64,000 nt of DNA from Promethearchaeota archaeon (GTDB lineage: Archaea > Asgardarchaeota > Thorarchaeia > Thorarchaeales > Thorarchaeaceae). The position numbers and the translations under genes were made by a program. Location: contig JALVPN010000040.1 of the NCBI GenBank assembly GCA_027031765.1, positions 71,915-135,914 of the forward strand, in the 5' to 3' direction. Positions 1,237 to 44,150 of this stretch are shown one piece after another. The notes beneath the pieces are model-generated. The model did not search any database, had not been told where the DNA came from, and saw only the letters and a program-made list of their open reading frames with translations. Every line of letters begins with the position of its first letter. Within the stretch, counting starts at the first letter, position 1.

Positions 1237-1344
1237 GCCCCTGTAGTGTAGCCCGGCCTAGCATTCGAGACTGTCACACTTCGTGGATGGCAGTCCCGGA
1301 GGGCCACTCTCGAGACCCGGGTTCAAATCCCGGCGGGGGCGCCA
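1237..1344 (+). tRNA. tRNA-Asp(GTC) with 30-nt intron at canonical 37/38 position (1277..1306); CCA encoded
   Basis: Hand-folded: acceptor GCCCCTG/CGGGGGC (one G-U), D-stem GTGT/GCAT, anticodon stem CGAGA/TCTCG interrupted by intron, loop CTGTCA-C, T-arm CCGGG TTCAAAT CCCGG. Confidence 0.8.
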
Positions 1345-1439
1345 TCTCATCCAGTTTCCTACAGCAGGAAGTCCTCCTCTCTTCAAGGGCTCAGGGTTAT
1401 GGGGATGACAAGTGCCAGAAACAATTGACTGGCAGTGCA

Positions 1440-2756
1440 TCACATATGTATCAGTGCAGACTCTGGGACTTCCCTGAAGATGCTTCTTGCCGCACGGCCG
1501 ACCTGTAGTCGGTACTGCGGGGTCGTATATACCCGAATCACATCAAAGTACCCACGCATCACATCGCCAATCTTTGAGAACTCGGAGAGGTAGTGCGAAA
1601 CCTTCTGCCCCTCAATCATCTCGAAGATATTGACTTCCATGGGTTTCTCTTGGAGGGGGTTATATGGGACAGATGGTAGTGATGGCACATCGACAATTAC
1701 TGCTTCAACCGGTACATCAGCCCGTGTTGCAATCTCTTCCTGTATGCTCTCGCACACCTTTTTCTTGGTCAAGAGTTTGGAAACGAAACGGTCAGGCGTG
1801 TGGAGGATTTTCTCAAATGCCGACTTGTAGAGGACACGACAGTCGAGCATCTTCATGAGACGCGATGCCTCCCTTGTGTCCTCCGAATCTTGAGGGTCAA
1901 GACGCCGAATCTGTGAAATCATAGACACATCATCAAGGGCGAGAAACTCGTCCGGTGAGGAGAAGCGTGTCAGCCCGAGCGGCTCATCCGCTGCTGACAT
2001 CAGCTGGACCAGCATGACCTCAACACTGCGGACGGTCTTGTGGAAATAGACGTTCATGAACATCTCGTATCTTGCCACAAGGAACGCCTCAAGTGCGCCT
2101 CTCGCAGCCAAGGCAAACTCTAGGACGAGTTCGTCGGACACCTCCAAGCTGTCAATCAGGCGATGGAAGTCAACAAGACCATAACTTACGCCGCAATAGA
2201 AAGAGTCCCTAATGAGGTAGTCCAGTTTGTCTGCATCGACCTGTCCAGCAACCAAGCTCCCGAGTACGAGGTCTACACGATCTTTCAATGTCCCACGCAC
2301 CAGGCGGGCAATGCGTTCTTTTGAATACCCATTGTCGTCGAGTATATCCCCAATCCGACTCTTCTTTATAACCCACTCCGTGACGTCCTCATGGTTCATC
2401 CCACGGTGTTCCAGCAGAACCTCTTCGAACACATGGCTGAACGGTCCGTGCCCTATGTCATGTAGAAGAGCAGCAAGCCGCAGCTCGTCGAGGCGGTCAG
2501 AGTCTAGATCCAACTGTTCCAGTATTCTTCGACCCAACAAACTTGCAATGAACATGGTGCCGAGCGAGTGGCCAAACCGTGTATGCTCTGCAGTAGGATA
2601 TACGAAGTGCCCACCAGAGAGCTGTTTGATTCGGCGCAGTCGTTGAAAGGCGTGAGTGTCAATTATCTTCTGCTCGGTCTTCGACAACCTGATGAACCCA
2701 TGTATCGGGTCATTGACCTCCATCTCGAATGTCAACGTCTTAGCCTCGGCAATCAT
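1440..2756 (-). CDS. HD-domain phosphohydrolase (dNTP triphosphohydrolase-like)
   Basis: FQRLRRIKQL...HTRFGHSLG and LLHDIGHGPFSH HD motifs; 4-nt overlap with upstream co-oriented regulator gene. Confidence 0.7.
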   Translation of the reverse strand: MIAEAKTLTFEMEVNDPIHGFIRLSKTEQKIIDTHAFQRLRRIKQLSGGHFVYPTAEHTRFGHSLGTMFIASLLGRRILEQLDLDSDRLDELRLAALLHDIGHGPFSHVFEEVLLEHRGMNHEDVTEWVIKKSRIGDILDDNGYSKERIARLVRGTLKDRVDLVLGSLVAGQVDADKLDYLIRDSFYCGVSYGLVDFHRLIDSLEVSDELVLEFALAARGALEAFLVARYEMFMNVYFHKTVRSVEVMLVQLMSAADEPLGLTRFSSPDEFLALDDVSMISQIRRLDPQDSEDTREASRLMKMLDCRVLYKSAFEKILHTPDRFVSKLLTKKKVCESIQEEIATRADVPVEAVIVDVPSLPSVPYNPLQEKPMEVNIFEMIEGQKVSHYLSEFSKIGDVMRGYFDVIRVYTTPQYRLQVGRAARSIFREVPESALIHM

Positions 2757-3496
2757 ACGTCGGGTTCAAACAGTCGGAGCCTTTTCACAAGCTCCTCGAC
2801 CGTTGGAACCTGTGATATACACAGCGGGAGGTGCATGCCATCCGCGATGCGAACGGCCAGCGGATCCAGTTCTTTGACCCCCTGTAGAATGACAACAGCA
2901 GGCTTCACCGCCGGCGAGGTGCCAATTTGACTTGCTTTTATTGCCACCATTGGAGAACGCCCCGTTGAAACGTTGGTGAGGACTGCAGCTCTCTGGGTAG
3001 TGCCACCGTAGAGCCTGAGCAGCTGGTGGGGTGTGAGGCTCACAATTGCACTTACGCTGTCCAGTGCAGTATATCCGTATACGTCACGTCCCAGCAGCGC
3101 ACCATGTGTGAGCACTTTGCAGTCTAGGAACTGTACCAGCTGGCGGGCCGGGACTGGCACCCCAAACTCACGGCTGTCAAGGATGGCATCTGATGCAATC
3201 TCAGGCGAGATTAGTTTCTCAAGGGCCAGTGCAATACGCCCACCGTTTGCGGCATCCATTTCAAGCAGACCATCAACAAACCTCTTGATTGTGTCAACAC
3301 GAGGGGACTTCCTGCGTCCGCTCTCATAGTCACTTATGACGGACGGGGACACACCCAGATAGTCTGCAAGTGCTTTCTGTGACACTTGGAAGCGTTCGCG
3401 CCACTGACGCATGACTGAGCCCGGATCGTTCTCAGCGAGACATATCTCGCCAGCAATCGTTTCGGCAAGCCGTTGCAGTGACTCCCGACGGCTCAT
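2753..3496 (-). CDS. XRE-family HTH transcriptional regulator with C-terminal domain (ORF-track start at 3676 trimmed to internal Met)
   Basis: HTH_3 signature SQKALADYLGVSPSVISDYESGRR; the N-terminal 60 aa of the track ORF are low-complexity. Confidence 0.5.
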   Translation of the reverse strand: MSRRESLQRLAETIAGEICLAENDPGSVMRQWRERFQVSQKALADYLGVSPSVISDYESGRRKSPRVDTIKRFVDGLLEMDAANGGRIALALEKLISPEIASDAILDSREFGVPVPARQLVQFLDCKVLTHGALLGRDVYGYTALDSVSAIVSLTPHQLLRLYGGTTQRAAVLTNVSTGRSPMVAIKASQIGTSPAVKPAVVILQGVKELDPLAVRIADGMHLPLCISQVPTVEELVKRLRLFEPDV

Positions 3497-3810
3497 GAGC
3501 ACAACAGTAGTCACAGGGCTGATAAGAGTTGTGTAGCACAGTGGAGAAACGGGCAGACGATGAACACTTGCGTGCCAGCCCACCAGTCCAACAGTCCCGC
3601 GTATGACAACACTTGGCGGTGAGGACTGTTGTTCTCCCCCTCGGCACCTGCGCCGCAGAGGGGGACGTGTGGCCAATCATGACCACATAGATGGGGCAAA
3701 GAACCTCTCGGACAGCCCGGACAGGTCACCGGGCAACATCCATTATCACCACATGGATGAATCGAAGGACTCAAAGATGTCCACCGGTACTCTGGAAGAG
3801 AGGACAGGCC

Positions 3811-4581
3811 ATGTTCTTTGCGTTCTTGGTGGGAACTGCGGGTTCTGGAAAGTCACACCTCACGGCTGCCCTTGAGAAGTGGCTTGTAGCAGCTGACCTG
3901 AGCGTCACGGTTGTGAACCTCGACCCGGGCGTGGAAGACCCCCCATATACCAGTGATGTTGACATCCGGGAGTACGTTGACTATGGAGAGATAATGAAGA
4001 AGCTCGGTCTTGGGCCTAATGGGGCACTGGTCGCGTCACTGGACTTGGCGCTGGGACACATCGAGCAGATTCGTGAGGAGGTTCTTGAAACAGGTCGGGA
4101 CTACGTACTGGTCGACTGCCCGGGCCAGATGGAACTCTTTGCCTATCGGAACTCGGGCCCGCTCATGGTATCTGGGCTGAGGGGGACTGACAACGCACTG
4201 TCGCTGTATCTAGTGGACTCCAATATTGCAAGGACGCCAGCCGGATACCTTTCGTCTCTTCTACTCGGGGTCTCAATCAACATCCGGTTTGGCCTGGCCC
4301 AATTGAACGTACTGAGCAAGCCAGATATCCTCATGGAAAGAGAACGTGAGAGTATCCTCACATGGTCTTCCGACCCATATACGCTACAGGAGGCCCTTGA
4401 GGCGTCATCGGAGGGGCTAGTCCGAGAGTATTCCAGATCCATACTGATAATGCTTGAGGAACTCGGTGGGGCAACAGAGGTAATCCCCGTTTCTGCAAAG
4501 CACATGACGGGAATAGACACACTCTATGCATTCATGCAGCGCGTCTTTGCAGGTGGCGAAGACTACCTAACATACGAATAG
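3811..4581 (+). CDS. GPN-loop GTPase (XAB1/Npa3-like)
   Basis: Walker A GTAGSGKSH, NLDPG, GPN motif LGLGPNG, DCPGQME; start trimmed to MFFAFLVG. Confidence 0.75.
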   Translation: MFFAFLVGTAGSGKSHLTAALEKWLVAADLSVTVVNLDPGVEDPPYTSDVDIREYVDYGEIMKKLGLGPNGALVASLDLALGHIEQIREEVLETGRDYVLVDCPGQMELFAYRNSGPLMVSGLRGTDNALSLYLVDSNIARTPAGYLSSLLLGVSINIRFGLAQLNVLSKPDILMERERESILTWSSDPYTLQEALEASSEGLVREYSRSILIMLEELGGATEVIPVSAKHMTGIDTLYAFMQRVFAGGEDYLTYE

Positions 4582-4688
4582 TAGGAGGGCGTAGACTGCG
4601 GGACTATTTTGCCTATGTTTCAGGCGAACACGTAGACCTTGCCAAGGCAGAAATCGAGTCGCTCCTCAAGCTATGGGACGACTGTACC

Positions 4689-6847: not shown

Positions 6848-7408
6848 TTGAAGACGGTCAGGGCATTTCTCAGCGTCGACATAAAGGACAGGCCGCTCGT
6901 GGTGCATATAACACACATCCAGCAACAGCTGGACACCACCTCAGCAAGCATGAAACTGGTCGAGCCGGAGAACCTGCACTTTACATGGAGGTTTTTTGGA
7001 GAGACAGCCATCACGAAGATTGACCAGATGCGCCAGACGCTTCAAAATCTTGTATTCTCAGCGTTCACGATAGAAGTGGGGGGAGTGTCTGCATTCCCAA
7101 GCCCCTCACGCCCCCGGGTGGTCTGGGTGGGGGTGAAACACAACAACGACATGATGGTCAGGCTCAAACAACAGACGGACAGTCTGCTCGCCCGACTCGG
7201 CATCCCGCCGGAGAAACGGTTCGTCCCACATGCAACAATCGCAAGAATTCGACGCATTCATGACAGTCGTGCCCTTGGCGAGAACATTGGAGCACTGAGG
7301 GATGTTACCGTAGGCACTATGACTGTCGACGCAATCACCATGAAACAGAGTACACTGACACCATCGGGCCCGATATACAAGACACTGTGGGAAATACGTG
7401 CGAGGTAG
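6848..7408 (+). CDS. ligT: RNA 2',3'-cyclic phosphodiesterase / 2'-5' RNA ligase LigT (2H phosphoesterase)
   Basis: Two H-x-T-x motifs (LHFTWRF and PHATIARI); N-terminus VRAFLSVDI typical of LigT. Confidence 0.7.
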   Translation: MKTVRAFLSVDIKDRPLVVHITHIQQQLDTTSASMKLVEPENLHFTWRFFGETAITKIDQMRQTLQNLVFSAFTIEVGGVSAFPSPSRPRVVWVGVKHNNDMMVRLKQQTDSLLARLGIPPEKRFVPHATIARIRRIHDSRALGENIGALRDVTVGTMTVDAITMKQSTLTPSGPIYKTLWEIRAR

Positions 7409-7409
7409 G

Positions 7410-7546
7410 TGGTGGGCCGGGGGAGACTTGTCCCGTCGGGGGAGCCCCAACGACGTTTGAACTCCCGATCTCTTGCATTCTGTTGCTGGAGGGCCTTTGC
7501 CCCAGCCACCCCAAGCAAGCATCATACCAAGCTAGACTACCGACCC
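7410..7546 (-). tRNA. tRNA-Pro(GGG) with two introns: 31 nt at 37/38 (7478..7508) and 29 nt in the T-loop at 59/60 (7427..7455); CCA encoded
   Basis: Hand-folded on minus strand: acceptor GGGTCGG/CCGGCCC, D-arm GTCT AGCTTGGTA TGAT, anticodon stem CTTGC/GCAAG, loop TTGGGG-T, T-stem GGGAG/CTCCC with TTCAAA-[intron]-T. Confidence 0.65.
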
Positions 7547-7842
7547 ATCTACCTTGCACGGTGGCAGCCCATGCTTTCATGGGGCCTAGTCTAAGGACGG
7601 ACGCACCCAAAATAAAGCTTGCCAAAGAGTAGAAGGAGGAGCCCAAGGGGGAGGGAGGGGCGTTGGTGTTGGAGGAGGAGCAGAACCAAGCGCCACCACT
7701 CTCATTTACGGACAACAGCAGGTCGTGTCTGCTGATGCAACCTGCAACACTGCCTACGGAAACACTGTTGCAATGGCGTGCCACGCATGGAGCATGCACC
7801 TCACGACGCACAGTGGTAGGACTGGGCTCTCGGCTTGTGGCG

Positions 7843-7850
7843 TTTAAATA
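7843..7850 (+). promoter_or_regulatory. Archaeal TATA box TTTAAATA upstream of the Roadblock-GTPase operon
   Basis: Consensus-like TATA about 110 nt upstream of the most likely start (GTG 7961). Confidence 0.45.
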
Positions 7851-7960
7851 GCCCCTTCACGACTCCATTCCGATTGGAATGTCTAAAGGCAGACCTAGGG
7901 CTGGCAGTGCAGTCCGGGCGCACTGTGTGCACGAGTGGCACAGGGCCACACGAACGAGAT

Positions 7961-8920
7961 GTGGGAGATGATGTATTGAACGACCTGAGTGACACGCTAC
8001 AGAACATCAAGATGATTACAGGAGTTGAGAATGTGGTCCTGGTGCAGAAGGACGGGGTGCCTGTCGCAAGTGCCGGGGTATGGTTTAGCAAGGAAGAGGT
8101 CTTTGCCGTTGCATCGTCCGCTTCTGCAATCTTTGGGGTCGCCCGTCTGATCCACAACGACTTCAAATACCTCCTGATGGAATCGGACACGTCAAAGGTG
8201 TTCTTGGCAGCGCTGCCCAATGACCCCGACTACTTCCTGACAATCACGACGGCCCCACGTGTGAACCTTGCTGCACTGTTCATTGAAATGCGCAGAAACC
8301 TCTCCCACCTGTCCTTTCTCCTACGACAACAGGCTGAAGGCCGCGCACCACCTCTCAGATCGTATAGCCTCGACGAGACCCAGAGGGTGCTCCGGGGGTT
8401 TGCCGTTTCAGAAGGTGACGGGACATCGTATGTGCTCTCACGCACAGTTGTTTCACTTGACCGCAGTCATGCTGTTGCTCTCCGGTCACTGCTCCGACAG
8501 ATCAGCGACAGCATCCCACGTGTGAGTTCGGTATTCCTATCACTCACCGGAGGCGTCCGGATTTCGCTGGACGGGTTCACTGATGACCGCCTTGCGGCCA
8601 TGTCATTTGCGCTGCACGATGCATCGGAGAGAGTAATCCGTACCCTCCGCAACAGTTCTCTGGCGACTGTTCTCTGTGAAACCGACTCGGTGAGACACTT
8701 TACATACTCAGTTCCAAACGGCGTCTTCAGCCTCTGGGTGGAGAAGTCGAGTCAGAAGCTTGGCTTGATGCGACTGCTCCTGAAACATTTCATCACGGAG
8801 ATGCGGCGAGTCCTGGCATCGGCATCGGTTGTCAGACCATCCATCCCGGCAGACCTGAGGGAACTGCTGCTGTCAGGGATTTCCGAAGAGTCAATACTGA
8901 TGACGAGGCGAGAACAATGA
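7961..8920 (+). CDS. Tandem Roadblock/LC7 (MglB-like) domain protein (start uncertain: GTG 7961 or ATG 8012; track start 7835 overlaps the TATA box)
   Basis: N-terminal IKMITGVENVVLVQKDGVPVASAG...AVASSASAIFGVARLI and C-terminal VSSVFLSLTGGVRISLDGFTDDRLAAMSFALHDASERV both fit the Roadblock fold pattern. Confidence 0.55.
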   Translation: MGDDVLNDLSDTLQNIKMITGVENVVLVQKDGVPVASAGVWFSKEEVFAVASSASAIFGVARLIHNDFKYLLMESDTSKVFLAALPNDPDYFLTITTAPRVNLAALFIEMRRNLSHLSFLLRQQAEGRAPPLRSYSLDETQRVLRGFAVSEGDGTSYVLSRTVVSLDRSHAVALRSLLRQISDSIPRVSSVFLSLTGGVRISLDGFTDDRLAAMSFALHDASERVIRTLRNSSLATVLCETDSVRHFTYSVPNGVFSLWVEKSSQKLGLMRLLLKHFITEMRRVLASASVVRPSIPADLRELLLSGISEESILMTRREQ

Positions 8921-15163: not shown

Positions 15164-15241
15164 TGGCGGGCGCACCAGGATTTGAACCTGGGACGTCTTG
15201 GTCCGAAGCCAAGCGCCCTATCCAGACTAGACCATGCGCCC
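15164..15241 (-). tRNA. tRNA-Arg(TCG), no intron, CCA encoded
   Basis: Acceptor GGGCGCA/TGCGCCC, anticodon stem CTTGG/CCAAG, loop CTTCGGA, T-arm CCAGG TTCAAAT CCTGG. Confidence 0.8.
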
Positions 15242-17267: not shown

Positions 17268-17557
17268 GCTGTCGTATCTGGAACACTTGTTCCATGGAGG
17301 ACGATGGCAACGAAACGCAACTCTTTTTATGTAATCATACCATACAACAAGGTGTCCATAGCGACGGTCAGGACAGATGATATGCTAGTTGTCAGGCCAC
17401 ATGGAAATGCTTTTATTCCCACATAGCGCTCCGATGTGTGCTCAGGCAGGATTGCTTCCCGACATGCATGGCCGCGTACCATCTGTCAGATATCAGGGAA
17501 GTGTACAATCTCAAACATCGGGCCGGGATGTGACCCTGCATGTCGGTGTGTACGTAG

Positions 17558-17664
17558 GGGCTCGTGGCGCAGCCAGGTAGCGCAGCAGGCTTTTAACCTG
17601 ATGGCCGCGGGTTCAAAGAAGCGCGAGAGTTCCTCGCGGTTGGGGTATCCCGCCGAGCCCGCCA
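17558..17664 (+). tRNA. tRNA-Lys(TTT) with 30-nt intron in T-loop at 59/60 (17618..17647); CCA encoded
   Basis: Acceptor GGGCTCG/CGAGCCC, D-arm GCGC AGCCAGGTA GCGC, anticodon loop CTTTTAA (27:43 G-A mismatch), T-stem GCGGG/CCCGC split by intron containing CGCGAG..CTCGCG hairpin. Confidence 0.6.
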
Positions 17665-17811
17665 TGCCCCTTCACAAGGAAGACGCAATCTGCCGAGTAA
17701 TACAACGGGGCGACTATTGCGGGATGTGTGTACTCCGTTCTATGGGGTTCATGCATCGGGAAGCATCTGAGTCCGCAGTAGTACCCCGTCCTGCCCCCCG
17801 GGTGTCAGAAC

Positions 17812-20800
17812 ATGGTCGGCGAGAGGCGTGACAAATACTGGCCGGTAATTGAGAGCTTCTTCAAGGAGTATGGGCTTGTTGGACAGCACCTAGACTCGTT
17901 CAACCGTTTTATCCGAGAGGAGCTCCAGCAGGTCGTAGACAGTGTCAGCGAGATTAAGCCGAAGATTGAGGGCTACACCGTAGCTCTGGGCAAGATAGAA
18001 GTGCACCCCCCGTCAATCCGCGAGGCGGATGGCAGTGAGCACCCACTTTACCCCAACGAGGCACGAATCCGTAATCTGACCTACGCCAGTAAACTATTGC
18101 TAGAGTGCACTCCAATCCGTCGTGATGGGTCAACGACCACGCGACTTGAAACTGTAAGAATCTACATAGGCGACCTGCCAATCATGCTGAGGAGTGAAAC
18201 ATGTCTTCTACACGGCATGACTGAGGAGGAGCTCATCAAACATGGTGAGGACCCAAAAGACCCCGGGGGTTACTTCATAATCAACGGTTCGGAACGTGTC
18301 CTAGTAACACAGGAAGACCTCGCTCCGAACAGGATTCTGATTGAGGAGGCGAGTAAGAGTTCAAGCTACACACACATAGCCAAGGTGTTCTCGACTTCTA
18401 GGGGGTTCCGTGCACCAGTCACTATCGAACGAAAACGGACTGGTGAGTTGCGTGTGTCGTTTCCCTCAGTACCAGGGAAAATCCCACTGGCCATCTTGAT
18501 GAAGGCCCTAGGACTCGAATCGGACAAGGACATTGCAGATGTAATATCAGACGACGAGGAAATCCGAAATGAGCTGATAGTCACAATTGAGCAGTCGGCC
18601 CCGATAAACGCCCCACGTGACGGCTCTGGAGGGTCGACAGTCGAGAATGCCCTTGATTTCATAGGGAAGCGTGTGGCTGTTGGACAGACAAGAGAATACC
18701 GACTTGCGCGCGCCGAAAAGGTCCTTGACCGATATCTATTGCCACACATTGGGACTGAGCCAGAGGACCGCCTCCAGAAAGCATACTACCTAGGACAGAT
18801 GGTCGAGCGCCTCCTCGAACTCGTGCTGGGGAAACGTCAGCCCGATGACAAGGACCACTATGCGAACAAGCGTCTGAAACTCTCAGGTGACCTGCTTGTT
18901 TCCCTCTTCAGAGTAGCGCTGTACTCGTTGACACGAGATATCAAGTATCAGCTTGAGCGGACGGCCGTCAGGGGACGGAAGCCTAACATCCGGACAGCTG
19001 TCCGTGCAGATGTGATTACACAGCGGCTCAAGCACGCACTTGCTACTGGCAACTGGGTTGGTGGTAAGGCAGGAGTATCACAACTCCTCGACAGAACCAA
19101 CTACATCTCCTCACTGTCGCATCTCCGCCGCGTCGTATCGCCCTTGTCAAGGTCGCAACCACATTTCGAGGCGAGAGATCTCCACTCCACCCATTGGGGA
19201 AAGGTCTGTCCCAATGAAACCCCGGAGGGGCCAAATTGCGGTCTTGTGAAGAACATCGCCATGATGGCATACATCTCGGTTGGCACAAATGAGGACGCCG
19301 TCGAACAGGCACTCATGCAGGCCGATGTCGAGGCCATCGAGGCCCGGCAGGGCCGGCGTGGTGCCAAGTGGGCTGATGTGTTCCTCAATGGTCGGCTTGT
19401 AGGCGTACATGCGGCGCCCAAGCTGCTTGTCAGGGCAATCCGTCAGAGGCGTCGTGCCGGCGAGATTGACCAGGAGGTAAACATAGCATACTATGAGGAC
19501 ACCAATGAGGTCCAGGTGAACTGCGATGCTGGACGCGTCCGGCGCCCCCTCATCATAGTGGAAAATGGACAGAGCCGGCTGACCGATGAACACCTGAGGA
19601 TGATTGAGGAAGGCGAATGGACATTCAACGACCTGCTGCGCAACGGGATTATGGAATTCCTAGATGCAGAGGAGGAGGAGAACACACTGATTGCAATGTA
19701 TCCGGAGGACATACGTCCCAACACGACCCACCTAGAAATCGTACCCTCCACCATACTTGGCATCTCCGCAGCTCTCATCCCCTTCCCAGAGCATAACCAG
19801 TCGCCCCGGAACGTCTACATGGCAGGAATGGCCAAGCAGTCTGTCGGGGTGCCCGCTTCCAATTTCAAGTTCAGGGCAGATACACGTTCCCACTTTTTCC
19901 ACTACCCGCAAGTCCCACTGGTCAAGACGCGGGCTATGGACTCCATAGGATACGAGGAACGACCCGCCGGGCAGAACTTTATTGTTGCAATCCTATCATT
20001 CGAAGGGTACAACATTGAAGATGCTCTGATTCTGAACAAGGCCTCAATTGACCGGGGTCTGGGACGCAGTACATTCTGCCGGGTGTACGAGAGTGAGGAG
20101 CGCAAATATCCGGGAGGTCAAGAGGATCGGTTCGAGATACCTGACCGTAGTGTCCGGGGCTATCGTGCATCAGAGTCATACCGCAACCTCGGGGAGGACG
20201 GCATTATTGAAACGGAGGTCGAAGTGCAAGGAGGCGATGTCCTGATAGGGCGGACTTCACCCCCACGTTTCCTAGAAGAGTACTCCGAGTTTGAAATCAC
20301 GTCACCAAACCGCCGAGAAACATCAGTGGCAGTACGTCACGGAGAGTCCGGTGTTGTGGACAGTGTAATCCTAACGGAAACAATTGATGGCAACCGCCTT
20401 GTAAAAGTCAAGGTGCGAGACCTCCGCATCCCAGAACTCGGGGACAAGTATGCATCACGGCACGGACAGAAAGGGGTAATCGGATACCTCGCACCACAGG
20501 AGGATCTCCCCTTCACCGAGGACGGTGTCGTACCAGACCTTGTACTGAACCCACATGCTATACCAAGCCGGATGACAATCGGTCAAATCCTTGAGATGAT
20601 AGCCGGAAAGGCAGCTGCAATGGAGGGCAAACAACAGGATGCAACTCCCTTCTGTGGTGTGACGGAAGAGGAGCTGTTTGGTCTCCTCAAGAAGCACGGC
20701 TTTCAGCACACTGGTCGCGAAACTATGTATTCGGGCGTTACAGGTGAGAAGCTGAAGACCGATGTGTTCATTGGCTGTGTATACTACATGAAGCTACACC

Positions 20801-21177
20801 ACATGGTGGCGGACAAGATCCATGCGAGGGCCCGTGGACCAGTCCAAATCTTGACGCGCCAGCCAACTGAGGGGCGGGCCCGCGAGGGCGGCCTGCGTTT
20901 TGGTGAGATGGAACGCGACGTGCTCATCGGTCACGGTGCTGCAATCTTGCTGAAGGGACGCTTACTTGACGAGTCCGACAAGAGTACGATGCTTGTCTGT
21001 GAAGAGTGTGGCCTGATAGGCGTGTACGACCGTAACAAGGATCAGTACTATTGCCCAATCTGTGGCCCAAGCGCGAGAATCAGCAGTGTGGTTGTGTCTT
21101 ATGCGTTCAAGCTCTTGCTCCAAGAAATGATGTCCCTTGGCCTTGCATGTCGCCTGCGCCTCAAGGAGATGATCTAG
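17812..21177 (+). CDS. rpoB: DNA-directed RNA polymerase subunit B (unsplit)
   Basis: 1121 aa with the universal RpoB segments (GQKGV, conserved LGxxEMERD-type loop MKLHHMV..GGLRFGEMERD), C-terminal Zn ribbon CEECG..CPICG. Confidence 0.95.
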   Translation: MVGERRDKYWPVIESFFKEYGLVGQHLDSFNRFIREELQQVVDSVSEIKPKIEGYTVALGKIEVHPPSIREADGSEHPLYPNEARIRNLTYASKLLLECTPIRRDGSTTTRLETVRIYIGDLPIMLRSETCLLHGMTEEELIKHGEDPKDPGGYFIINGSERVLVTQEDLAPNRILIEEASKSSSYTHIAKVFSTSRGFRAPVTIERKRTGELRVSFPSVPGKIPLAILMKALGLESDKDIADVISDDEEIRNELIVTIEQSAPINAPRDGSGGSTVENALDFIGKRVAVGQTREYRLARAEKVLDRYLLPHIGTEPEDRLQKAYYLGQMVERLLELVLGKRQPDDKDHYANKRLKLSGDLLVSLFRVALYSLTRDIKYQLERTAVRGRKPNIRTAVRADVITQRLKHALATGNWVGGKAGVSQLLDRTNYISSLSHLRRVVSPLSRSQPHFEARDLHSTHWGKVCPNETPEGPNCGLVKNIAMMAYISVGTNEDAVEQALMQADVEAIEARQGRRGAKWADVFLNGRLVGVHAAPKLLVRAIRQRRRAGEIDQEVNIAYYEDTNEVQVNCDAGRVRRPLIIVENGQSRLTDEHLRMIEEGEWTFNDLLRNGIMEFLDAEEEENTLIAMYPEDIRPNTTHLEIVPSTILGISAALIPFPEHNQSPRNVYMAGMAKQSVGVPASNFKFRADTRSHFFHYPQVPLVKTRAMDSIGYEERPAGQNFIVAILSFEGYNIEDALILNKASIDRGLGRSTFCRVYESEERKYPGGQEDRFEIPDRSVRGYRASESYRNLGEDGIIETEVEVQGGDVLIGRTSPPRFLEEYSEFEITSPNRRETSVAVRHGESGVVDSVILTETIDGNRLVKVKVRDLRIPELGDKYASRHGQKGVIGYLAPQEDLPFTEDGVVPDLVLNPHAIPSRMTIGQILEMIAGKAAAMEGKQQDATPFCGVTEEELFGLLKKHGFQHTGRETMYSGVTGEKLKTDVFIGCVYYMKLHHMVADKIHARARGPVQILTRQPTEGRAREGGLRFGEMERDVLIGHGAAILLKGRLLDESDKSTMLVCEECGLIGVYDRNKDQYYCPICGPSARISSVVVSYAFKLLLQEMMSLGLACRLRLKEMI

Positions 21178-21179
21178 GA

Positions 21180-25057
<3,878 letters not shown>

Positions 25058-25171
25058 TAAGAGCGGGCTACGATGAGTCGCTCATATGTCGATAACATTA
25101 AAACCGAACATCAGTGATGAGGGCCTGGCATTGAAACCAGTTGGAAACGACAAGAGAAGAGGTTGTAGTAG

Positions 25172-25465
25172 TTGAGTTTGAACCAGTCAATTGCCAGTGC
25201 AGTCAGTACCGGAAAGTGCAAGATTGGCGCAAGAGCAGTACTTGATGCCATCAGGAATGGTGAAGCAAGACTTGTGGTTGTGGCGGCCAACTGTCCCAAG
25301 AACCAGTACGAGGACATCATGCACTATGCAGCACTCGGGTCGGTAAAGGTCTACGAGTTTGGGGGGACTTCATGGGATTTGGGCGAGATTGCAGGAAAAC
25401 CATTCATGGTTTCGGCTATTGCAGTCATTGAGCCGGGTGACTCACAAATCCTTAGTATTGTCTGA
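25172..25465 (+). CDS. rpl30e: Ribosomal protein L30e
   Basis: KCKIGARAVLDAIRNGEARLVVVAANCP pattern; 97 aa; canonical position after rpoA2. Confidence 0.85.
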   Translation: MSLNQSIASAVSTGKCKIGARAVLDAIRNGEARLVVVAANCPKNQYEDIMHYAALGSVKVYEFGGTSWDLGEIAGKPFMVSAIAVIEPGDSQILSIV

Positions 25466-32503: not shown

Positions 32504-32748
32504 TACTGTCATTTGCGTCTGAAGTAGTTGCGTCGCAAGTGGGACAGGCACTGCTACCCGACAACAGAGGAGTGCCCGATGGTCTTAGAATTAGGATGGG
32601 AGAATGTGGCCCAATCCTCACGGTGGTCGTGGAGTGTGACAAGGGGGCGGGCACACTACGCAATACGATAGACGACATACTTGAGGCAGTGGATGTCACA
32701 CTTAGAACGCGTGACGCCATCTTCACGGCGGCGACCAATGAGTCATAG
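32488..32748 (+). CDS. pcc1: Pcc1-like KEOPS subunit (16-nt overlap with upstream gene)
   Basis: MRATIVLSFASEVVASQVGQALLPD...LTVVVECDKGAGTLRNTIDDILEAVDV fits Pcc1 pattern; 86 aa. Confidence 0.5.
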   Translation: MRATIVLSFASEVVASQVGQALLPDNRGVPDGLRIRMGECGPILTVVVECDKGAGTLRNTIDDILEAVDVTLRTRDAIFTAATNES

Positions 32749-32919
32749 ACTCGTGTGGCAACAGGTCGGCTGAACCTAGTCCGCATGTGGGCCATGATGT
32801 CAACGTCCCAGACGGTGCTCTTCCAGCTATCCCACATCTGAGAAACAAGCCCGATAGGGAAGGACTTGCTGCCCAGTGGATAACATTAAATGTTGATGAA
32901 CATGATAGAAGACCACAGT

Positions 32920-33020
32920 GCCGGGGTATCCAAGTGGCTACGGAGACGGTCTCGAAACGCATCGTCGAGTGAACCGTTGGGGCAATCCCCGCGTGGGTTC
33001 GAATCCCTCCCCCGGCGCCA
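32920..33020 (+). tRNA. tRNA-Ser(CGA), class II, 15-nt intron at 37/38 (32957..32971); CCA encoded
   Basis: Acceptor GCCGGGG/CCCCGGC, 3-bp D-stem, anticodon stem ACGGT/ACCGT, long variable arm TGGGGCAATCCCC hairpin, T-loop TTCGAAT. Confidence 0.7.
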
Positions 33021-33099
33021 TCCAACCCTTTCGTTGATATGAGGATTGACACAATGTACTGTCACTCGAATCGGGCACCCGTATTATAGGTGGAAAGTG

Positions 33100-33222
33100 G
33101 CGAACCAAATGGTGCGGAGGGCGAGATTTGAACTCGCGAACCCCTACGGGAGTACCCCGTTGCCCGATTTTTCACTGGAACAACATCCGGGTCCTAAGCC
33201 CAGCGCCTTTGACCAGGCTTGG
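33100..33222 (-). tRNA. tRNA-Leu(TAG), class II, about 35-nt intron at anticodon-stem/variable-arm junction (about 33142..33176); CCA encoded
   Basis: Acceptor GCGGAGG/CCTCCGC, D-arm GCC AAGCCTGGTCAAA GGC, anticodon stem CTGGG/CCCGG, loop CTTAGGA, variable arm TCCCGTAGGGGTTC, T-arm GCGAG TTCAAAT CTCGC. Confidence 0.55.
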
Positions 33223-33704
33223 CAACCTCCGCTTGTTGGAGAAGAGTTGCAGCCTGGGCTGTTATAATCCTTTGGCTAGTACGATGGAGGGCAGCCAGTG
33301 GGGGGGAGCAATATCGCAAGGTCACACATGTCAAACTTGAGCCACTGGCCTAGAGCTGGTGGGGGCAGGCAAACGGGGCGACATCCCAGCATCTGAACCA
33401 TCACTGATACGACTCAATGGCATTCGTGGGCCACATGCAAATCCCTTGTCAGCCTCGCACTCTAAGGAGCTGCCGTGCCAAGTACAGTGCAATGGCCATC
33501 AAACTGTGGAGTTGACATCACTTACGCACTCATTCAGAATCCGTGCGTGCTTCCTTTTCGGAACTCGTTGCTGAAAGGGAACATACCAAATGAGAGTATA
33601 AATCCTTGAACCATCATAAGACGGGGCATATGCGTCGTGTTTGAATTACTAGATCCAGAAATTGGTGACAGGTTTGCCACGACACATGACCTGGATGATG
33701 CTGG

Positions 33705-33836
33705 TCAGTCGCGGACCTCCCAGTTGTGTTGACACCGTGGGCAACGCATCAGACGACGATAGCCCCCTGTCGGTAGAAGCTCTTTCTTGACGAGCGCTAC
33801 ATCCTTGAAGCCACACTTTGGACACTTTTCGCTCAT
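33705..33836 (-). CDS. 43-aa zinc-ribbon protein (absent from ORF track, below length cutoff)
   Basis: MSEKCPKCGF...RLMRCPRCQHNWEVRD: two CxxC pairs, clean ATG..TGA ORF. Confidence 0.4.
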   Translation of the reverse strand: MSEKCPKCGFKDVALVKKELLPTGGYRRLMRCPRCQHNWEVRD

Positions 33837-34115
33837 GGCCACTCACGCGATTCGAAGTTCACACAGTCAGATTATCTAGTTTGCTGTTATGTACTGCAAA
33901 CACGTGACCGATATACGGACGAATCAAAGTGAAGTGGGGCACCATTGCAGGGACTGGGGGTTTCCGTCCTAGTGACACTGGGAGGACATGAGATAGCCAC
34001 CAATGCGTCTCGTGGAGCTACTGCACAGCGGTTGCATGGGCCGAGCGGGTAATATGCAGATGACACCGGGTTTAAAGATAGACCTAGCCCTAACGGATAG
34101 CTCGGGTATGTTGTC

Positions 34116-37858: not shown

Positions 37859-37964
37859 GCCCCAGTAGCAAAGTGGTCTACTGCACCTGACTTGTAAGGT
37901 TGTAGTGAGACCTGCTCGTCAAGAAATCAGGAGATCGTGGGTTCAAATCCCACCTGGGGCTCCA
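37859..37964 (+). tRNA. tRNA-Thr(TGT) with 29-nt intron at 37/38 (37897..37925); CCA encoded
   Basis: Acceptor GCCCCAG/CTGGGGC, anticodon stem CCTGA/TCAGG, loop CTTGTA-A, T-arm GTGGG TTCAAAT CCCAC. Confidence 0.75.
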
Positions 37965-38059
37965 CATTTCTACACGTTGCTCATACCTGTGACCATGCAT
38001 ACATCTGAAGCCGGGGCTGATTCCATGCCAGTCACATAGGGAAGTGGGAAGTATATGCC

Positions 38060-38353
38060 CTATCCAACTACCAACTGTACGACGAAGAGAAGGATGGTGA
38101 CTGTGGACACCAGAGCGATAGCAGCTCCAATCTTGAACGGAAACTTCCGGGTCTTGTGGTGCAACGAGAACATAGCACCAACAAGTCCAAGACCCCCACC
38201 AATTAAGCCTAGGAGAATCAATGTGGTTTCCGGAACCCGCCACTCACCCCGCCTTGCACGCCACTTGTCCCATGCCATGACAACTAGGGCCGAGAGATTG
38301 ACAGCAAGCAAATAGGAAACAAGAACCCAGACCAAGGGACTAGACAATGCCAT
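38060..38353 (-). CDS. DUF1294 family small membrane protein
   Basis: MAWDKWRARRGEWRVPE...GGGLG...HHKTRKF signature of DUF1294. Confidence 0.6.
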   Translation of the reverse strand: MALSSPLVWVLVSYLLAVNLSALVVMAWDKWRARRGEWRVPETTLILLGLIGGGLGLVGAMFSLHHKTRKFPFKIGAAIALVSTVTILLFVVQLVVG

Positions 38354-38354: not shown

Positions 38355-39566
38355 TCAGTCATCCATCCTTCGGGCCGCTGCTTCAAGAGCACTTACGAGG
38401 GGGAGCTGCTCCCCCGTAAGGAAGCTTATGCAGGCACCGCCCCCGGTGCTAATGTGGGTTATGGAAGACTCAAGCCCCACCCTCCGTGCAAGAACCCCAA
38501 GATGGCCGCCACCTACGACTGTAACGCCGCCGCAGCTGGCGATTGCCTCCAGCACTCTGATAGAGCCATGTGCGAATGCCTCCCGTTCAAAACAGCCGAG
38601 GGGGCCATTGGCGAAGACGACGGCTGAACGTCCAATGATTTCCTCAAATGCCTCAAGTGTCTTGGGCCCAACATCAAGGACTGGACGCCCCTGAAGAGCA
38701 TCAAGAGAGCAATCGACCCGTCTGCCGTCCTGTTCAATCGCTCCATCTTGAGGGAGCACGATGATATCGGAGAATTCGGATAGCAAACGACATGCAACAT
38801 CAAGAACCGAGTCAGAACCGCTGATTGCAGATACATACCTGGGTGGGACTTGTCCGTTGGCTGCGAGGAAGAGAGTTGCGACAAGGCCGCCAAGCAGTGC
38901 ATGGTCGACCCGTTCAGAGCGCAGGAGTTTCTCCAGTGTCTTGACCTTGTCTTGGACTTTGCTCCCGCCGAGTACGAGAGTCCAGGGGTGTTTCGTGGTT
39001 GCTGTCACCTCCGTTAGGATGCGTATCTCCTTTTCAAGGAGCCGACCAGCCACGGATGGTAACACAACCGTGAAACCAACAATAGAGGGCTGGGATCGGT
39101 GCGCAGCGCCGAATGCATCATTGACGAACAGGTCAAAGAAATGGTACAGTTCCTGTACTATCGGTTCCTGAGCGACCACCTCAGGGGGTTCCCGCTTCAG
39201 CTCTCCCGGAAAGAAGCGGACATTCTCTAGGACGACTATTTGGCCAACCTCAACTCTTTGAATGGCCCGTTTTGCGCTCTCGCCGAAAATGTCGTCAACA
39301 AAGGACGCATTGAACCCCATCTCTCGTAGAAGACGGACGTGCGACTCCAAAGACACAAAGTCACTGGATTCGGGACGCCCCTGGTGTGCCATTAGGACAA
39401 CGGCGCTCTCGGATAGTTCCTCAAGTGTAGGACAGACAGCCCTAATGCGGCTGTCATCGAGGATTTCATGAGTGTCAGGATTTAGTGAGGAGTTGAGGTC
39501 TGCGCGCACAAGAACCCTTTTGCCGGCAACCTCGACATCGTCGAGTGTCTTGAATGGTAAGCGCAA
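38355..39566 (-). CDS. pgk: Phosphoglycerate kinase (TTG start; ORF-track extension to 39701 overlaps tRNA-Met and is rejected)
   Basis: GKRVLVRADLN, VVLMAHQGRP, C-terminal GGG..ACISFLTGE motifs. Confidence 0.85.
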   Translation of the reverse strand: MRLPFKTLDDVEVAGKRVLVRADLNSSLNPDTHEILDDSRIRAVCPTLEELSESAVVLMAHQGRPESSDFVSLESHVRLLREMGFNASFVDDIFGESAKRAIQRVEVGQIVVLENVRFFPGELKREPPEVVAQEPIVQELYHFFDLFVNDAFGAAHRSQPSIVGFTVVLPSVAGRLLEKEIRILTEVTATTKHPWTLVLGGSKVQDKVKTLEKLLRSERVDHALLGGLVATLFLAANGQVPPRYVSAISGSDSVLDVACRLLSEFSDIIVLPQDGAIEQDGRRVDCSLDALQGRPVLDVGPKTLEAFEEIIGRSAVVFANGPLGCFEREAFAHGSIRVLEAIASCGGVTVVGGGHLGVLARRVGLESSITHISTGGGACISFLTGEQLPLVSALEAAARRMDD

Positions 39567-39621
39567 CTTCTCAGTCTCCGCAGCGGTTTCCGTCGTGCCG
39601 GGATAGAAGAGGTCGAGAGGG

Positions 39622-39791
39622 TGGTGCCGCAGGAGGGCGACTCGGCCACTCCTCAAGACTCGGGGAGCAGCATTCGATCCCTCGACTTCGAGATTTCTCA
39701 TCTCCGGCCAGCCATTAATATGACCCCACGGGCAACCGGAACACCGGTCAGATTATGAGTCTCGCGCCCTACCAGGCTAGGCCACTGCGGC
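39622..39791 (-). tRNA. tRNA-Met(CAT), probably elongator, with two introns: 58 nt at 37/38 (39696..39753) and 35 nt in T-loop at 59/60 (39639..39673); CCA encoded
   Basis: Acceptor GCCGCAG/CTGCGGC, D-arm GCCT AGCCTGGTA GGGC, anticodon stem CGAGA/TCTCG, loop CTCATA-A, T-stem GAGGG/CCCTC. Confidence 0.55.
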
Positions 39792-39926: not shown

Positions 39927-41852
39927 CTATTCAGAAACTGGGCCCTCGTCCGAGAGTATCGTTTCAATCTCCCGGGCAATCAGATCCCTCACGACTTTCC
40001 CGTCAACACGACCCCGCAGCTCCTTCATAGCCACGCCCATGAGGCCGCTAAGCGCATGTTCTCTATGTTCTAGTACGAAGGCAACACGTTCACGGACAAT
40101 CTCTGCAACCCGTGCAGATACTTCGCTCATGTCAATACGGCGTAACCCGAGCTCGTTCACTGCATCATCGACCGTTCCTGTCGGGTTCTCGGCCAAGTGA
40201 CTCAGGATTGGTACAATGGCCTTGGGGTCTACAGTACCACGTGATATGGCAATGAACAAGTCGACCAAGTGATCTTGAGCCAATCGTTCTGTTGGCACAT
40301 TGTCGCGGTGGAGACTGACCAGTGTGTCAAGCAAGGTCGACGCAACTAGTGTTGGAGAGGCCCCCGTTTTACTGACAATCTCTTCGAACTCATCCCAGTG
40401 CACAGACCGTACAAGTTTTGATGCAAGCTCTTCGCTGAGCCCGTAGTCGCGCACGAAACGTGCCTGTTTGGCCTCAAGTGTTTCCGGCATCATACGCCGA
40501 ATCCGTTCAAGACGCTCGGCAGTCACCACAACGGGCCGGACATCTGTTTCAGGATACATGCGTTCTGCTCCAGGCCGTGGGCGTGCATATTTGGATCCAC
40601 CATCAGGGAGTGGAGTACGGGTTTCGGCCGGAACACCACACAGTGCAACACGAGCACGATCTGCAACCGCCTTCAGTGCGGCCTTGGCACGCTCATATGG
40701 TGCGGCGACAATTATCACAGCATCATCAGGACTGGCGCGTACTGCCTCACGTAGCTGTAGCACCTCATCCTCAGATATACCATATTTGGGCAACTCGTCT
40801 GTATGAAACAGCCCTGAAACACCACCCCAGAACCGGGCATAGTCTGCGAGTTCCGTTCCAAAACGTCGTCCGGGCTGCAGTTCTCTTCCGACCAGACCCG
40901 CAAAGCCGGGAAGTCGAAGTGCAAGAACGACCCCACCAGCAGCGGTAGTCCTACGAATTACCTTCGATTTGCTGTTAACGAACACATCTGTTACGTCGTG
41001 AATGTCTTCAGTCAAGCTTGATGCAGTCACATCCCGACGCTGGAGCTCGTCGCGGATTTCAAGCAGACGCAATTGCCGTAGAGCCTCAAGCTCTACAACA
41101 CGAGCGAGCATCCCGAGCTCCTGGAGGCCCTTGATTTCAGTCACTGCACCGTTGCGTATAGAAACATTGATGTCCTGGCGGATTGTGCCAAGTCCTCGTT
41201 TCACCCGTCCAGTAGACCTCAGGAGATAGCCAATCTGGAAGGCGACTTGCTGTGCCGCCTCGGGAGAGGTTATGTCGGGTGCGGTAGCAATCTCAATCAG
41301 AGGGATACCGAGACGATCCAATCTGTATACCCTCATGTTCTGGCGGTCATCCTCGGACATCTTCCGGGCCGCATCCTCTTCCAAGCAGATTGTCTGAATT
41401 CCAATCCGTGTAGTATTCACAACCATATGGCCATCCATGGCAATCACGGCGGTTCTCTGGAACCCGGATGTGTTGCTGCCATCAATGACTATCTTTCGCA
41501 TGGGATGAATTTCATCAACGGGTTTTGCATCAAGAAAAGTTGCCATTGTCAGACAGATGTCGATGGCATCCTCACACATCTCATGCGGGGGCTCCTCATC
41601 AGCCTCGACCAGACATGTGGTGTCACTGTAATACTCGTAACAGAATAGCTTCTTCTTCTTGAACTCAAAGAGTGCCGCAGGATCCACCTCACCCATTTCA
41701 CTCTGAGTCGGACGCAACCGGCGTACAAAGGTGCCATCGGGTGCATCATCACGGATGACCGGAGGACAGTGACAGAACAGTTTTCGCCGAGTATCCAGTT
41801 GTTGGTGGAGTTCCAGACCCACTTTGAGACCGATGTCCTTGTAGTCTGGCAC
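39927..41852 (-). CDS. gatE: Glu-tRNA(Gln) amidotransferase subunit E (GTG start, GGAGG 11 nt upstream)
   Basis: GLKVGLELHQQL N-terminal motif, C-terminal GatB/YqeY-type domain. Confidence 0.85.
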   Translation of the reverse strand: MPDYKDIGLKVGLELHQQLDTRRKLFCHCPPVIRDDAPDGTFVRRLRPTQSEMGEVDPAALFEFKKKKLFCYEYYSDTTCLVEADEEPPHEMCEDAIDICLTMATFLDAKPVDEIHPMRKIVIDGSNTSGFQRTAVIAMDGHMVVNTTRIGIQTICLEEDAARKMSEDDRQNMRVYRLDRLGIPLIEIATAPDITSPEAAQQVAFQIGYLLRSTGRVKRGLGTIRQDINVSIRNGAVTEIKGLQELGMLARVVELEALRQLRLLEIRDELQRRDVTASSLTEDIHDVTDVFVNSKSKVIRRTTAAGGVVLALRLPGFAGLVGRELQPGRRFGTELADYARFWGGVSGLFHTDELPKYGISEDEVLQLREAVRASPDDAVIIVAAPYERAKAALKAVADRARVALCGVPAETRTPLPDGGSKYARPRPGAERMYPETDVRPVVVTAERLERIRRMMPETLEAKQARFVRDYGLSEELASKLVRSVHWDEFEEIVSKTGASPTLVASTLLDTLVSLHRDNVPTERLAQDHLVDLFIAISRGTVDPKAIVPILSHLAENPTGTVDDAVNELGLRRIDMSEVSARVAEIVRERVAFVLEHREHALSGLMGVAMKELRGRVDGKVVRDLIAREIETILSDEGPVSE

Positions 41853-41853
41853 C

Positions 41854-43203: not shown

Positions 43204-43425
43204 GAGCGCACACCTATTGAAACATGAAACGTAGTGCCTGTGGGCATCATCAGTGAAATGATGGAGATTGCTCCTTGCAGGGTACTGCCGCTGTGTAGGC
43301 TTTGAGACGCATGCAGTGGGCATGGCACCAATGGCAAACATACCTGCTGTGGTCAGTACGGCGGTTGAGGTGATTGTTGAGCTGGTGATAAAGGCTTCGA
43401 CTCGTTGACATGACAATGCCTCTCT

Positions 43426-43989
43426 TCAGATGACGCCAAGTAACGACAGCAAACCAATTGCAATGAACAGGAGTCCTGTGAGGTAGTGGACTGTGCCGGA
43501 TTCTACAACAGTTGTAAGCCGATTCCCGAACAGTGCACCGACTAGATTGACCACCAAGAAGCCAAGAGTGGCACCTGCAAAGACGGCGAGGGGAAACTGC
43601 TCAGTCGCAGATAGAGCAAATATGGCAAGCTGGCTCTTATCGCCGAGTTCGGAGAGCAGAACAGTTACAAACATCCCCGGAAGAGTATGGGATGGGGCAC
43701 ATGACTCGTCGGCGTGAGTCTCTACGTGCAGGACAATGTACGCTCCGAGGACTACAAATGCGACTCCAGCAATCCAAGAAAGGACATCAAGCGGTAATAG
43801 AAGACCGAAGAAATATCCCACAGCGATTGTGAGCGCGGTAGCTAGGCAGAGCGCTAACATAGACACTATCAGGACTGCGAATGGGCGATGTGTCTGGGCA
43901 CTGAAACAGACTGTTCCCAGCATCGTCTTGTCACCGATTTCGGTGAGAGCAACCGCCGCAAATGCATATAGAAAACTAGCGCCGCACAT
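43426..43989 (-). CDS. UPF0016 / GDT1-TMEM165 family membrane protein (putative cation/H+ exchanger)
   Basis: Two E-x-G-D-K-(T/S) motifs (TEIGDKTML and SELGDKSQL). Confidence 0.7.
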   Translation of the reverse strand: MCGASFLYAFAAVALTEIGDKTMLGTVCFSAQTHRPFAVLIVSMLALCLATALTIAVGYFFGLLLPLDVLSWIAGVAFVVLGAYIVLHVETHADESCAPSHTLPGMFVTVLLSELGDKSQLAIFALSATEQFPLAVFAGATLGFLVVNLVGALFGNRLTTVVESGTVHYLTGLLFIAIGLLSLLGVI

Positions 43990-44032
43990 ATTCGCTCCTC
44001 GTGTTGGCCCAAATCGTGTGCTATTGAGCTAG

Positions 44033-44150
44033 TGGTGCGGGAGGCGGGATTTTCACACCATGCGCCAACCGGATGGTGGTTTGAACCCGCGAACCCCTTC
44101 GGGAGCAGATCTTAAGTCTGCCGCTTTTGGCCAAGCTTAGCAACTCCCGC
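44033..44150 (-). tRNA. tRNA-Leu(TAA), class II, 30-nt intron in T-loop at 59/60 (44050..44079); CCA encoded
   Basis: Acceptor GCGGGAG/CTCCCGC, D-arm GCT AAGCTTGGCCAAA AGC, anticodon stem GCAGA/TCTGC, loop CTTAAGA, variable arm TCCCGAAGGGGTTC, T-stem GCGGG/CCCGC. Confidence 0.6.

Follow-up and report, generated by a model that had tools for sequence, protein, structure and literature searches.

What are the inserts that break up most of the transfer RNA (tRNA) genes in a 64,000-nucleotide (nt) stretch of contig JALVPN010000040.1 (GenBank assembly GCA_027031765.1, positions 71,915 to 135,914; hereafter the window), and what do they reveal about the organism that carries them? An initial annotation, folded by hand from the letters alone, had described ten tRNA genes in the window, eight of them interrupted, and had read the pattern as pointing to a Thermoproteales-like host. 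Our analysis identified ten inserts of 15-59 nt in eight of the window's tRNA genes, and we consider it very probable that these are short, protein-spliced archaeal tRNA introns of the bulge-helix-bulge (BHB) type in a Thorarchaeote host.

Recovery of the ten tRNA genes

Standard gene finders see little of this set. Plain ARAGORN found only tRNA-Arg(TCG) and tRNA-Val(TAC), two of the ten genes, and the Rfam tRNA model detected seven of the ten loci at its gathering score, five of them with large inserts and tRNA-Lys without its T-arm; neither gave a correct T-loop intron. In an insert-removal scan, every insert of 10-70 nt was excised at every position of both strands and the resulting 7.8 million constructs were passed to ARAGORN, which recovered tRNA-Asp, -Lys, -Ser, -Thr, -Leu(TAG) and -Leu(TAA) at 114-125 bits; the three other clusters that emerged were all spurious and scored at most 102.6 bits. 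tRNA-Pro(GGG) and tRNA-Met(CAT) escaped this single-insert scan because they contain two introns each, and were found by a search for the 5′ half of the T-arm combined with direct reading of the sequence. Simple 5′-half pattern scans proved too noisy, and a candidate tRNA-Pro(TGG) at 9991 was rejected as lying inside an open reading frame (ORF).

With all ten introns removed, each of the ten genes yields a full-length cloverleaf tRNA at 112.5-120.3 bits in ARAGORN (118 for the continuous pair). An independent scan for a 7-base-pair (bp) acceptor stem together with U8, A14, R15 and a 3′ CCA returned the same ten genes and nothing else tRNA-like, and the ten-gene set of the window is probably complete. 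The 3′ CCA is encoded in all ten genes, as it is in the Thorarchaeota Lys and Asp orthologues described below. On the strength of the ten cloverleafs and the agreement of the two scans, the earlier count of eight interrupted genes in ten stands, as does that of five genes with non-canonical sites. ARAGORN and Rfam likewise find Arg and Val uninterrupted, as had been proposed, and the T-arms thought to be split reappear after intron removal, with ARAGORN recovering complete tRNAs at all interrupted loci. Only one intron each had been assigned to Pro and Met; their second, anticodon-loop introns (31 and 59 nt, respectively) had been overlooked, and bring the total to ten.

By site, the introns fall at 37/38 (Pro, Ser, Thr, Met), 38/39 (Asp), 43/44 (Leu(UAG)), 58/59 (Pro) and 59/60 (Lys, Met, Leu(UAA)); their coordinates are collected in Table 1. 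As annotated, the T-loop inserts of four genes (Pro, Lys, Met and Leu(TAA)) follow TTCAA(A) or ATCGAA, and the 35-nt insert of Leu(TAG) lies at the junction of anticodon stem and variable arm, where a strict BHB forms at 43/44. The spliced Leu(TAG) product measures 88 nt, with the variable arm TCCCGTAGGGGTTC and the same architecture as Leu(TAA).

Three gene identities call for comment. ARAGORN's top readings of the Thr and Asp genes, Tyr(GTA) and Gly(GCC), were rejected in favor of Thr(TGT) and Asp(GTC), assignments backed by the BHB register, the G73 discriminator, an Asp-type D-arm and the orthologues. The tRNA with a CAU anticodon carries a G1-C72 pair and hence is not an initiator; its sequence fits either elongator Met or Ile2 (agmatidine), and it may be either. 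Its T-loop is unusual in starting with A54 (AUCGAAG). A reading of its 59-nt intron as a C/D-box guide, suggested by CUGA at the 5′ end and GAUGAGA at the 3′ end, was rejected, as no C′/D′ boxes are evident and GAUGAG is the complement of the CAU anticodon loop that the BHB requires.

Table 1. tRNA genes of the window with their predicted introns, and the rpoB gene. H, h and h′ give the base pairs of the central, outer and inner helices; ARAGORN scores are those of the spliced products.
Feature	Position	Strand	Predicted intron, site and motif	Rfam (bits)	ARAGORN (bits)
tRNA-Asp(GTC)	1237-1344	+	One, 30 nt, 1278-1307 (38/39); 1277-1306 (37/38) gives the same mature RNA	46.5 (32-nt insert)	119.8
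tRNA-Pro(GGG)	7410-7546	-	Two, read from the sequence		116.6
Pro intron 1	7478-7508		31 nt, 37/38, anticodon loop; H 3/4, h 5		
Pro intron 2	7428-7456 (7427-7455 as 59/60)		29 nt, T-loop 58/59; strict: H 4/4, h 4, h′ 5		
tRNA-Arg(TCG)	15164-15241	-	Continuous; found by ARAGORN and Rfam	59	
tRNA-Lys(TTT)	17558-17664	+	One, 30 nt, 17618-17647, T-loop 59/60; H 3/4, h 5, h′ 2+6		119.1
rpoB (RNA polymerase subunit B)	17812-21177	+	Lineage marker and synteny anchor; starts 148 nt downstream of tRNA-Lys		
tRNA-Ser(CGA)	32920-33020	+	One, 15 nt, 32957-32971, 37/38; hBH: H 4/4, h 6, without h′	41.4	115.1
tRNA-Leu(TAG)	33110-33232	-	One, 35 nt, 33152-33186, 43/44, anticodon stem/variable region junction; strict: H 4/4, h 2, h′ 8	49 (47-nt insert in variable region)	
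tRNA-Thr(TGT)	37859-37964	+	One, 29 nt, 37897-37925, 37/38; H 4/4, h 5	59	120.3
tRNA with CAU anticodon (Met)	39622-39791	-	Two, read from the sequence		116.2
Met(CAU) intron 1	39695-39753		59 nt, 37/38; strict hBHBh′: H 4, h 5, h′ 3		
Met(CAU) intron 2	39639-39672		34 nt, T-loop 59/60; H 3/4, h 5, h′ 8		
tRNA-Leu(TAA)	44033-44150	-	One, 30 nt, 44050-44079, T-loop 59/60; strict hBHBh′: H 4, h 5, h′ 6		114.5
tRNA-Val(TAC)	44294-44371	+	Continuous; found by ARAGORN and Rfam	59.5	

Bulge-helix-bulge folds, splicing and the choice of register

How could inserts at such different sites be removed by one machinery? In the BHB geometry applied here, a 4-bp central helix (H) pairs exon nucleotides x-5 to x-2 with intron nucleotides y-5 to y-2, and the cut falls after the second base of each 3-nt bulge; in the BHB described for 37/38 introns, nucleotides 32-35 pair with the intron (PMC4090602). 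All junctions of the window can be folded as a BHB or a relaxed BHB. The motif is strict for five introns (Pro T-loop, Leu(TAA), Leu(TAG), Met anticodon-loop and Thr), and for Leu(TAA) it is also the minimum-free-energy fold. The Lys, Met T-loop and Pro anticodon-loop introns have three of four central pairs with a helix on both flanks; Ser forms an hBH motif with its 5′ splice site in the terminal loop, and Asp an HBh′ motif only (H 3/4, h′ 5, without an outer helix). The BHB folds expected at each junction are thus strict at five and near-strict or relaxed at the other five, with no junction lacking a BHB-like motif. In the registers initially assigned, eight of the ten introns show H and h′ pairing that shuffled introns reach in 0.005-2.5% of trials. 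The Asp and Pro T-loop introns were at chance in their first register (46% and 40% of shuffles) and fit only after re-registration, the shuffle figures covering the first registers and not Asp 38/39 or Pro 58/59.

We propose the following model for intron removal. As the sequence shows, the 3′ end of the intron can pair in each precursor with a block of exon nucleotides ending two bases short of the 5′ splice site: 32-35 where the intron lies in the anticodon loop, 54-57 where it lies in the T-loop, and 38-41 in the case of 43/44. The result is the 4-bp central helix, with both splice sites in 3-nt bulges between an exon helix (anticodon stem or T-stem) and the intron hairpin. For T-loop introns the T-stem is the outer helix, and for the 43/44 intron the motif forms at the cost of the anticodon stem. 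Based on established knowledge, the archaeal splicing endonuclease EndA would cut both bulges and the RtcB ligase would join the exons. Half of the junctions are relaxed, in that one of the four central pairs is not formed, the outer or the inner helix is absent, or the register is shifted, and several lie at non-canonical sites; processing them would require an EndA of broad specificity, in support of the relaxed-specificity endonuclease that the initial annotation had inferred. Neither the α4 and α′2 enzymes of Euryarchaeota nor the ruler mechanism of eukaryotes would be expected to process introns in the T-loop or at 43/44. For Asgard archaea, among them a Thorarchaeote, Kaneta et al. report an (αβ)2 EndA with an L1 loop, otherwise typical of the TACK (Thaumarchaeota, Aigarchaeota, Crenarchaeota and Korarchaeota) archaea (PMC5829648). 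By analogy with these published Asgard and TACK enzymes, we infer that the host's EndA is likewise (αβ)2 with an L1 loop.

Several points weigh against this interpretation. Splicing itself we infer from the folds and exons. Pfam scans of 50 ORFs found neither EndA nor RtcB in the window, so that the enzyme type is taken from published work. When the remaining tRNAs were compared by BLAST with the loci carrying rpoB, only Asp gave orthologues; with a metagenome scan for Pro included, there were none for Pro, Met, Ser, Thr and the two Leu genes. The motif of the Asp intron has no outer helix, and it competes with an 8-bp helix that sequesters the anticodon. Finally, the registers of Pro (58/59 or 59/60), Asp (37/38 or 38/39) and Leu(TAG) (43/44 or 44/45) were chosen by motif quality, and ARAGORN scores the alternatives equally.

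Could the mechanism be the same and the registers different, with all four T-loop introns at 59/60, Asp at 37/38 and a 33-nt Leu(TAG) intron at 44/45? The mature Asp RNA is identical either way, the mature Pro and Leu(TAG) RNAs score equally, and TTCAAAT is the commonest T-loop in the set. We nevertheless regard this arrangement as unlikely, if the most serious of the alternatives. At 59/60 the Pro T-loop intron has only one of four central pairs, as against a strict motif at 58/59, and TTCAAGT T-loops occur in Thorarchaeota tRNA-Asp; for Leu(TAG), 43/44 gives all four central pairs and a variable arm matching Leu(TAA). A metagenome scan with a tRNA-Pro D-arm pattern retrieved only intronless tRNA-Pro(CGG) genes of unrelated organisms, and thus yielded no orthologue by which to settle the choice between 58/59 and 59/60. 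The T-loop site 59/60 that four genes were thought to share is therefore kept for Lys, Met and Leu(TAA) and given up for Pro, for which the BHB is strict only at 58/59.

Similarly, of the three genes placed at the canonical 37/38 site, Ser and Thr remain there, and Asp forms a better BHB at 38/39. A strict BHB at 37/38 does not fit Asp (H 2/4), and models with two or nested introns or with a 3′ hairpin were dropped for the 38/39 HBh′ motif, which is supported by a homologous Asp intron at one Thorarchaeota locus (L001), in which only the 38/39 cut keeps the conserved C38. In the window's Asp precursor (1266-1295), the minimum-free-energy fold is dominated by the 8-bp helix GACUGUCA / UGGCAGUC, which joins the anticodon region to mid-intron sequence and forms in competition with the anticodon stem. 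The L001 Asp intron likewise repeats the sequence of the anticodon stem's 3′ strand.

Orthologous genes and the host lineage

The protein-spliced introns proposed here can be followed into related genomes. tRNA-Lys lies directly upstream of rpoB in 57 syntenic Thorarchaeota loci, with tRNA-Asp close by in most, usually within a few hundred bases. At these loci tRNA-Lys is intronless in 12, has a 16-28 nt intron at 37/38 in 5, a 30-32 nt intron at 43-45 in about 27, an intron at 53/54 in 2 and one at 59/60 in about 10; one locus (L004) has introns at both 44/45 and 59/60. Asp orthologues are intronless in 9 cases and interrupted at 37-39 in about 15, and others carry introns in the D-loop (20/21), at a 45/46-like site, or at 53/54 or 56/57; the Asp gene of L009 has three (20/21, 37/38, 53/54). 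The 12 Lys and 9 Asp intronless orthologues show the predicted exon junctions. Since the intronless tRNA-Lys of locus L002 is identical to the window's spliced Lys product, the window's Lys intron is fixed as 30 nt at 59/60 exactly. The tRNA-Arg(TCG) of the same locus (~17632-17742, minus strand) has a 33-nt T-loop intron; the window's Arg(TCG) is continuous.

A wider survey with a BHB-plus-ARAGORN pipeline covered 68 Thorarchaeota loci (1.17 Mb), a sample dominated by Lys and Asp orthologues. It returned about 124 tRNA genes, of which 26 lack introns, 77 have a single one and 22 have two, so that about 79% carry one or two BHB-type introns; the window's 80% of interrupted genes is typical for the phylum.

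Are the interrupted genes perhaps pseudogenes or decaying copies that have kept their inserts, with functional intronless copies elsewhere in the genome? The merely relaxed motifs at some junctions (Asp and the Pro anticodon loop) could be taken that way. Eight of ten genes would then have to be dead, and the same architecture is found in the 79% of tRNA genes just described for related loci. The exons, moreover, are intact and conserved as in the intronless orthologues, those of Lys being 100% identical to L002. The introns themselves bear the mark of constraint. In an alignment of 12 T-loop introns, 3 from the window and 9 from orthologous Lys genes, the BHB fold pairs 88.8% of cells, compared with 33-57% when the partners are slid; eight of the nine h′ pairs of the inner helix show compensatory changes, and none of 500 shuffles matched the covariation score. 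This result applies to T-loop introns, the window's anticodon-loop and 43/44 introns lying outside the alignment. Compensatory substitutions in the helices argue for selection on the intron fold, and we consider decay of these genes very improbable.

The host was initially placed among Thermoproteales-like (TACK) archaea, on the grounds of intron density and the recurring 59/60 site. Thermoproteales are indeed the classic case, with about 70% of tRNA genes containing introns, 59/60 sites and multiple introns (PMC4090602; cited in PMC11291895), and the window's G+C content of 54% was also counted in favor of this origin. RpoB, the sole universal marker used for lineage, refutes the placement. 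It shows 85-89% amino acid identity to about 65 Candidatus Thorarchaeota / Promethearchaeota loci, to which its best matches all belong (61 best loci, labelled Thorarchaeota, Promethearchaeota or uncultured archaeon, with taxonomy checked), and only 55-67% to Thermoproteota, Desulfurococcales, Sulfolobaceae, Methanomethylicota and Bathyarchaeia, the first three of these groups lying at 58-67%. The gene order around tRNA-Lys, rpoB and tRNA-Asp is likewise common to Thorarchaeota loci, and a Roadblock/LC7-domain protein is encoded in the window. Based on RpoB identities and gene content, the host is an Asgard archaeon rather than a member of the Thermoproteales, an origin that we consider close to untenable; judged from its sequence, the window belongs to the chromosome of an uncultured Thorarchaeote.

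Still less credible are other elements, such as group I or II introns, integration scars at tRNA attachment sites or assembly artefacts: tRNA genes, frequently their 3′ half, are indeed targets of integrative elements in archaea, but inserts of 15-59 nt are too short for self-splicing introns, Rfam gives only tRNA matches, direct repeats of the tRNA 3′ part are absent, a BHB-like fold bounds every insert, homologous introns occur in other metagenome-assembled genomes (MAGs), and an independently indexed Logan contig from run SRR13622960 is identical to the window over 7.6 kb (17588-25202), Lys intron included. No ribozyme core was found by Rfam, nor any split or permuted tRNA gene, the exons being colinear and contiguous in the window.

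The remaining gene content fits a housekeeping region of an archaeon. Pfam identified RNA polymerase, NusA, L30e, Kae1/Bud32, GatDE, PGK and PAN, along with Trm5/Tyw2, TFE, NurA/HerA, a GPN-loop GTPase (ATP_bind_1; 3691-4581, plus strand) and the Roadblock/LC7-domain protein (7835-8920, plus strand); the last two belong to eukaryote-like families and are consistent with an Asgard host. Several mechanically called ORFs overlap tRNA genes: 7335-7811 (minus), 17436-17831 (plus), 32723-33052 (minus), 37878-38243 (minus) and the 5′ end of 38355-39701 (minus). Pfam scans of two of them, 7335-7811 and 17436-17831, gave no match, and the overlaps likely reflect spurious ORFs or over-extended starts, as where the PGK ORF runs into the tRNA-Met gene. 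The roughly 650 nt adjoining tRNA-Leu(TAG) (33233-33886) contain no ORF of at least 80 amino acids, and Rfam found nothing there even when run permissively. Below threshold, 41547-41606 (minus strand) matches the C/D-box small RNA family sR7 (21.9 bits, E = 1.1), with both boxes, C and D, recognizable; the match falls within the GatE ORF, which runs on the same strand, and is probably due to chance.

Intron turnover and known systems

What does the spread of sites among orthologues imply? Among genomes whose RpoB is 85-89% identical to that of the window, tRNA-Lys has no intron or one at 37/38, 43-45, 53/54 or 59/60. The comparison of orthologous sequences shows that Thorarchaeota tRNA introns are evolutionarily labile, having apparently been gained, lost or relocated between close relatives. 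A subfamily of Lys 59/60 introns (L016, L019, L024 and L073, which are not independent of one another) is 77-81% identical to Lys 43-45 introns (L014, L021 and others) in the interior, the unconstrained part of the intron, a level that none of 300 shuffles preserving the hairpin architecture reached. It may be that one intron was relocated within the tRNA-Lys gene. The window's own Lys intron, compared with the 43-45 introns, gave 0.65 (p = 0.23), which is not significant. In an all-against-all comparison, most cross-gene similarities did not exceed the maximum of the shuffled null, and only that between Lys 59/60 and 43-45 introns survived the stricter test. It is conceivable, if somewhat doubtful, that BHB introns are, or recently were, mobile in Thorarchaeota. 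If this is true, the 'large-scale intron transposition' described for Thermoproteales would hold as well for the archaea related to eukaryotes.

The introns resemble those of Thermoproteales and other Crenarchaeota (Marck & Grosjean 2003; Sugahara 2007, 2008; Fujishima 2010; reviewed in PMC4090602) in being short and bounded by hBHBh′, HBh′ or hBH motifs, in their sites (20/21, 37/38, ~45, 53/54, 56/57 and 59/60, with up to three introns per gene), in the fraction of genes interrupted (about 70-80%) and in varying in presence between close relatives; 20/21, 45/46, 53/54, 56/57 and 59/60 are known non-canonical sites (PMC4090602). Unlike in that group, the host here belongs to the Asgard archaea and not to TACK, and split or permuted tRNA genes were not seen in the window. 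Four of the introns (Pro, Ser, Thr, Met) correspond to canonical archaeal and eukaryotic 37/38 introns, with nucleotides 32-35 pairing with the intron, whereas the other six lie elsewhere.

Closer parallels come from the Asgard archaea themselves. In Atabeyarchaeia and Freyarchaeia, 92-95% of tRNA genes are described as containing introns, often at non-canonical sites and with several per gene (PMC11291895); a survey of Asgard tRNAs and EndA covers, among others, Thorarchaeota SMTZ1-83 (PMC5829648). The window shares with these Asgard archaea a majority of interrupted tRNA genes, non-canonical sites and multiple introns, and the (αβ)2 EndA with L1 loop predicted for the present host matches that of published Asgard archaea (PMC5829648). 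Intron-rich tRNA genes are thus already published for Asgard archaea, and our finding is confirmatory, in a lineage where it is expected. As far as their available text extends, PMC11291895 and PMC5829648 deal with other genomes and contain no per-site Thorarchaeota map, nor do they describe the turnover shown here orthologue by orthologue for Lys and Asp.

What, then, is the relevance of such genes? The density of introns and the 59/60 site, read earlier as hallmarks of Thermoproteales, are not diagnostic, given that the host is a Thorarchaeote. Neither a high density of tRNA introns nor T-loop introns at 59/60 can identify Thermoproteales, and the tempting shortcut from these features to that lineage is wrong because Asgard archaea share both. 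In such genomes most tRNA genes escape standard gene finders, and an Asgard MAG in which tRNAs are missing should not on that account be taken as incomplete. The orthologue comparison provides compact, testable data on the rate at which BHB introns are gained, lost and moved in the closest archaeal relatives of eukaryotes.

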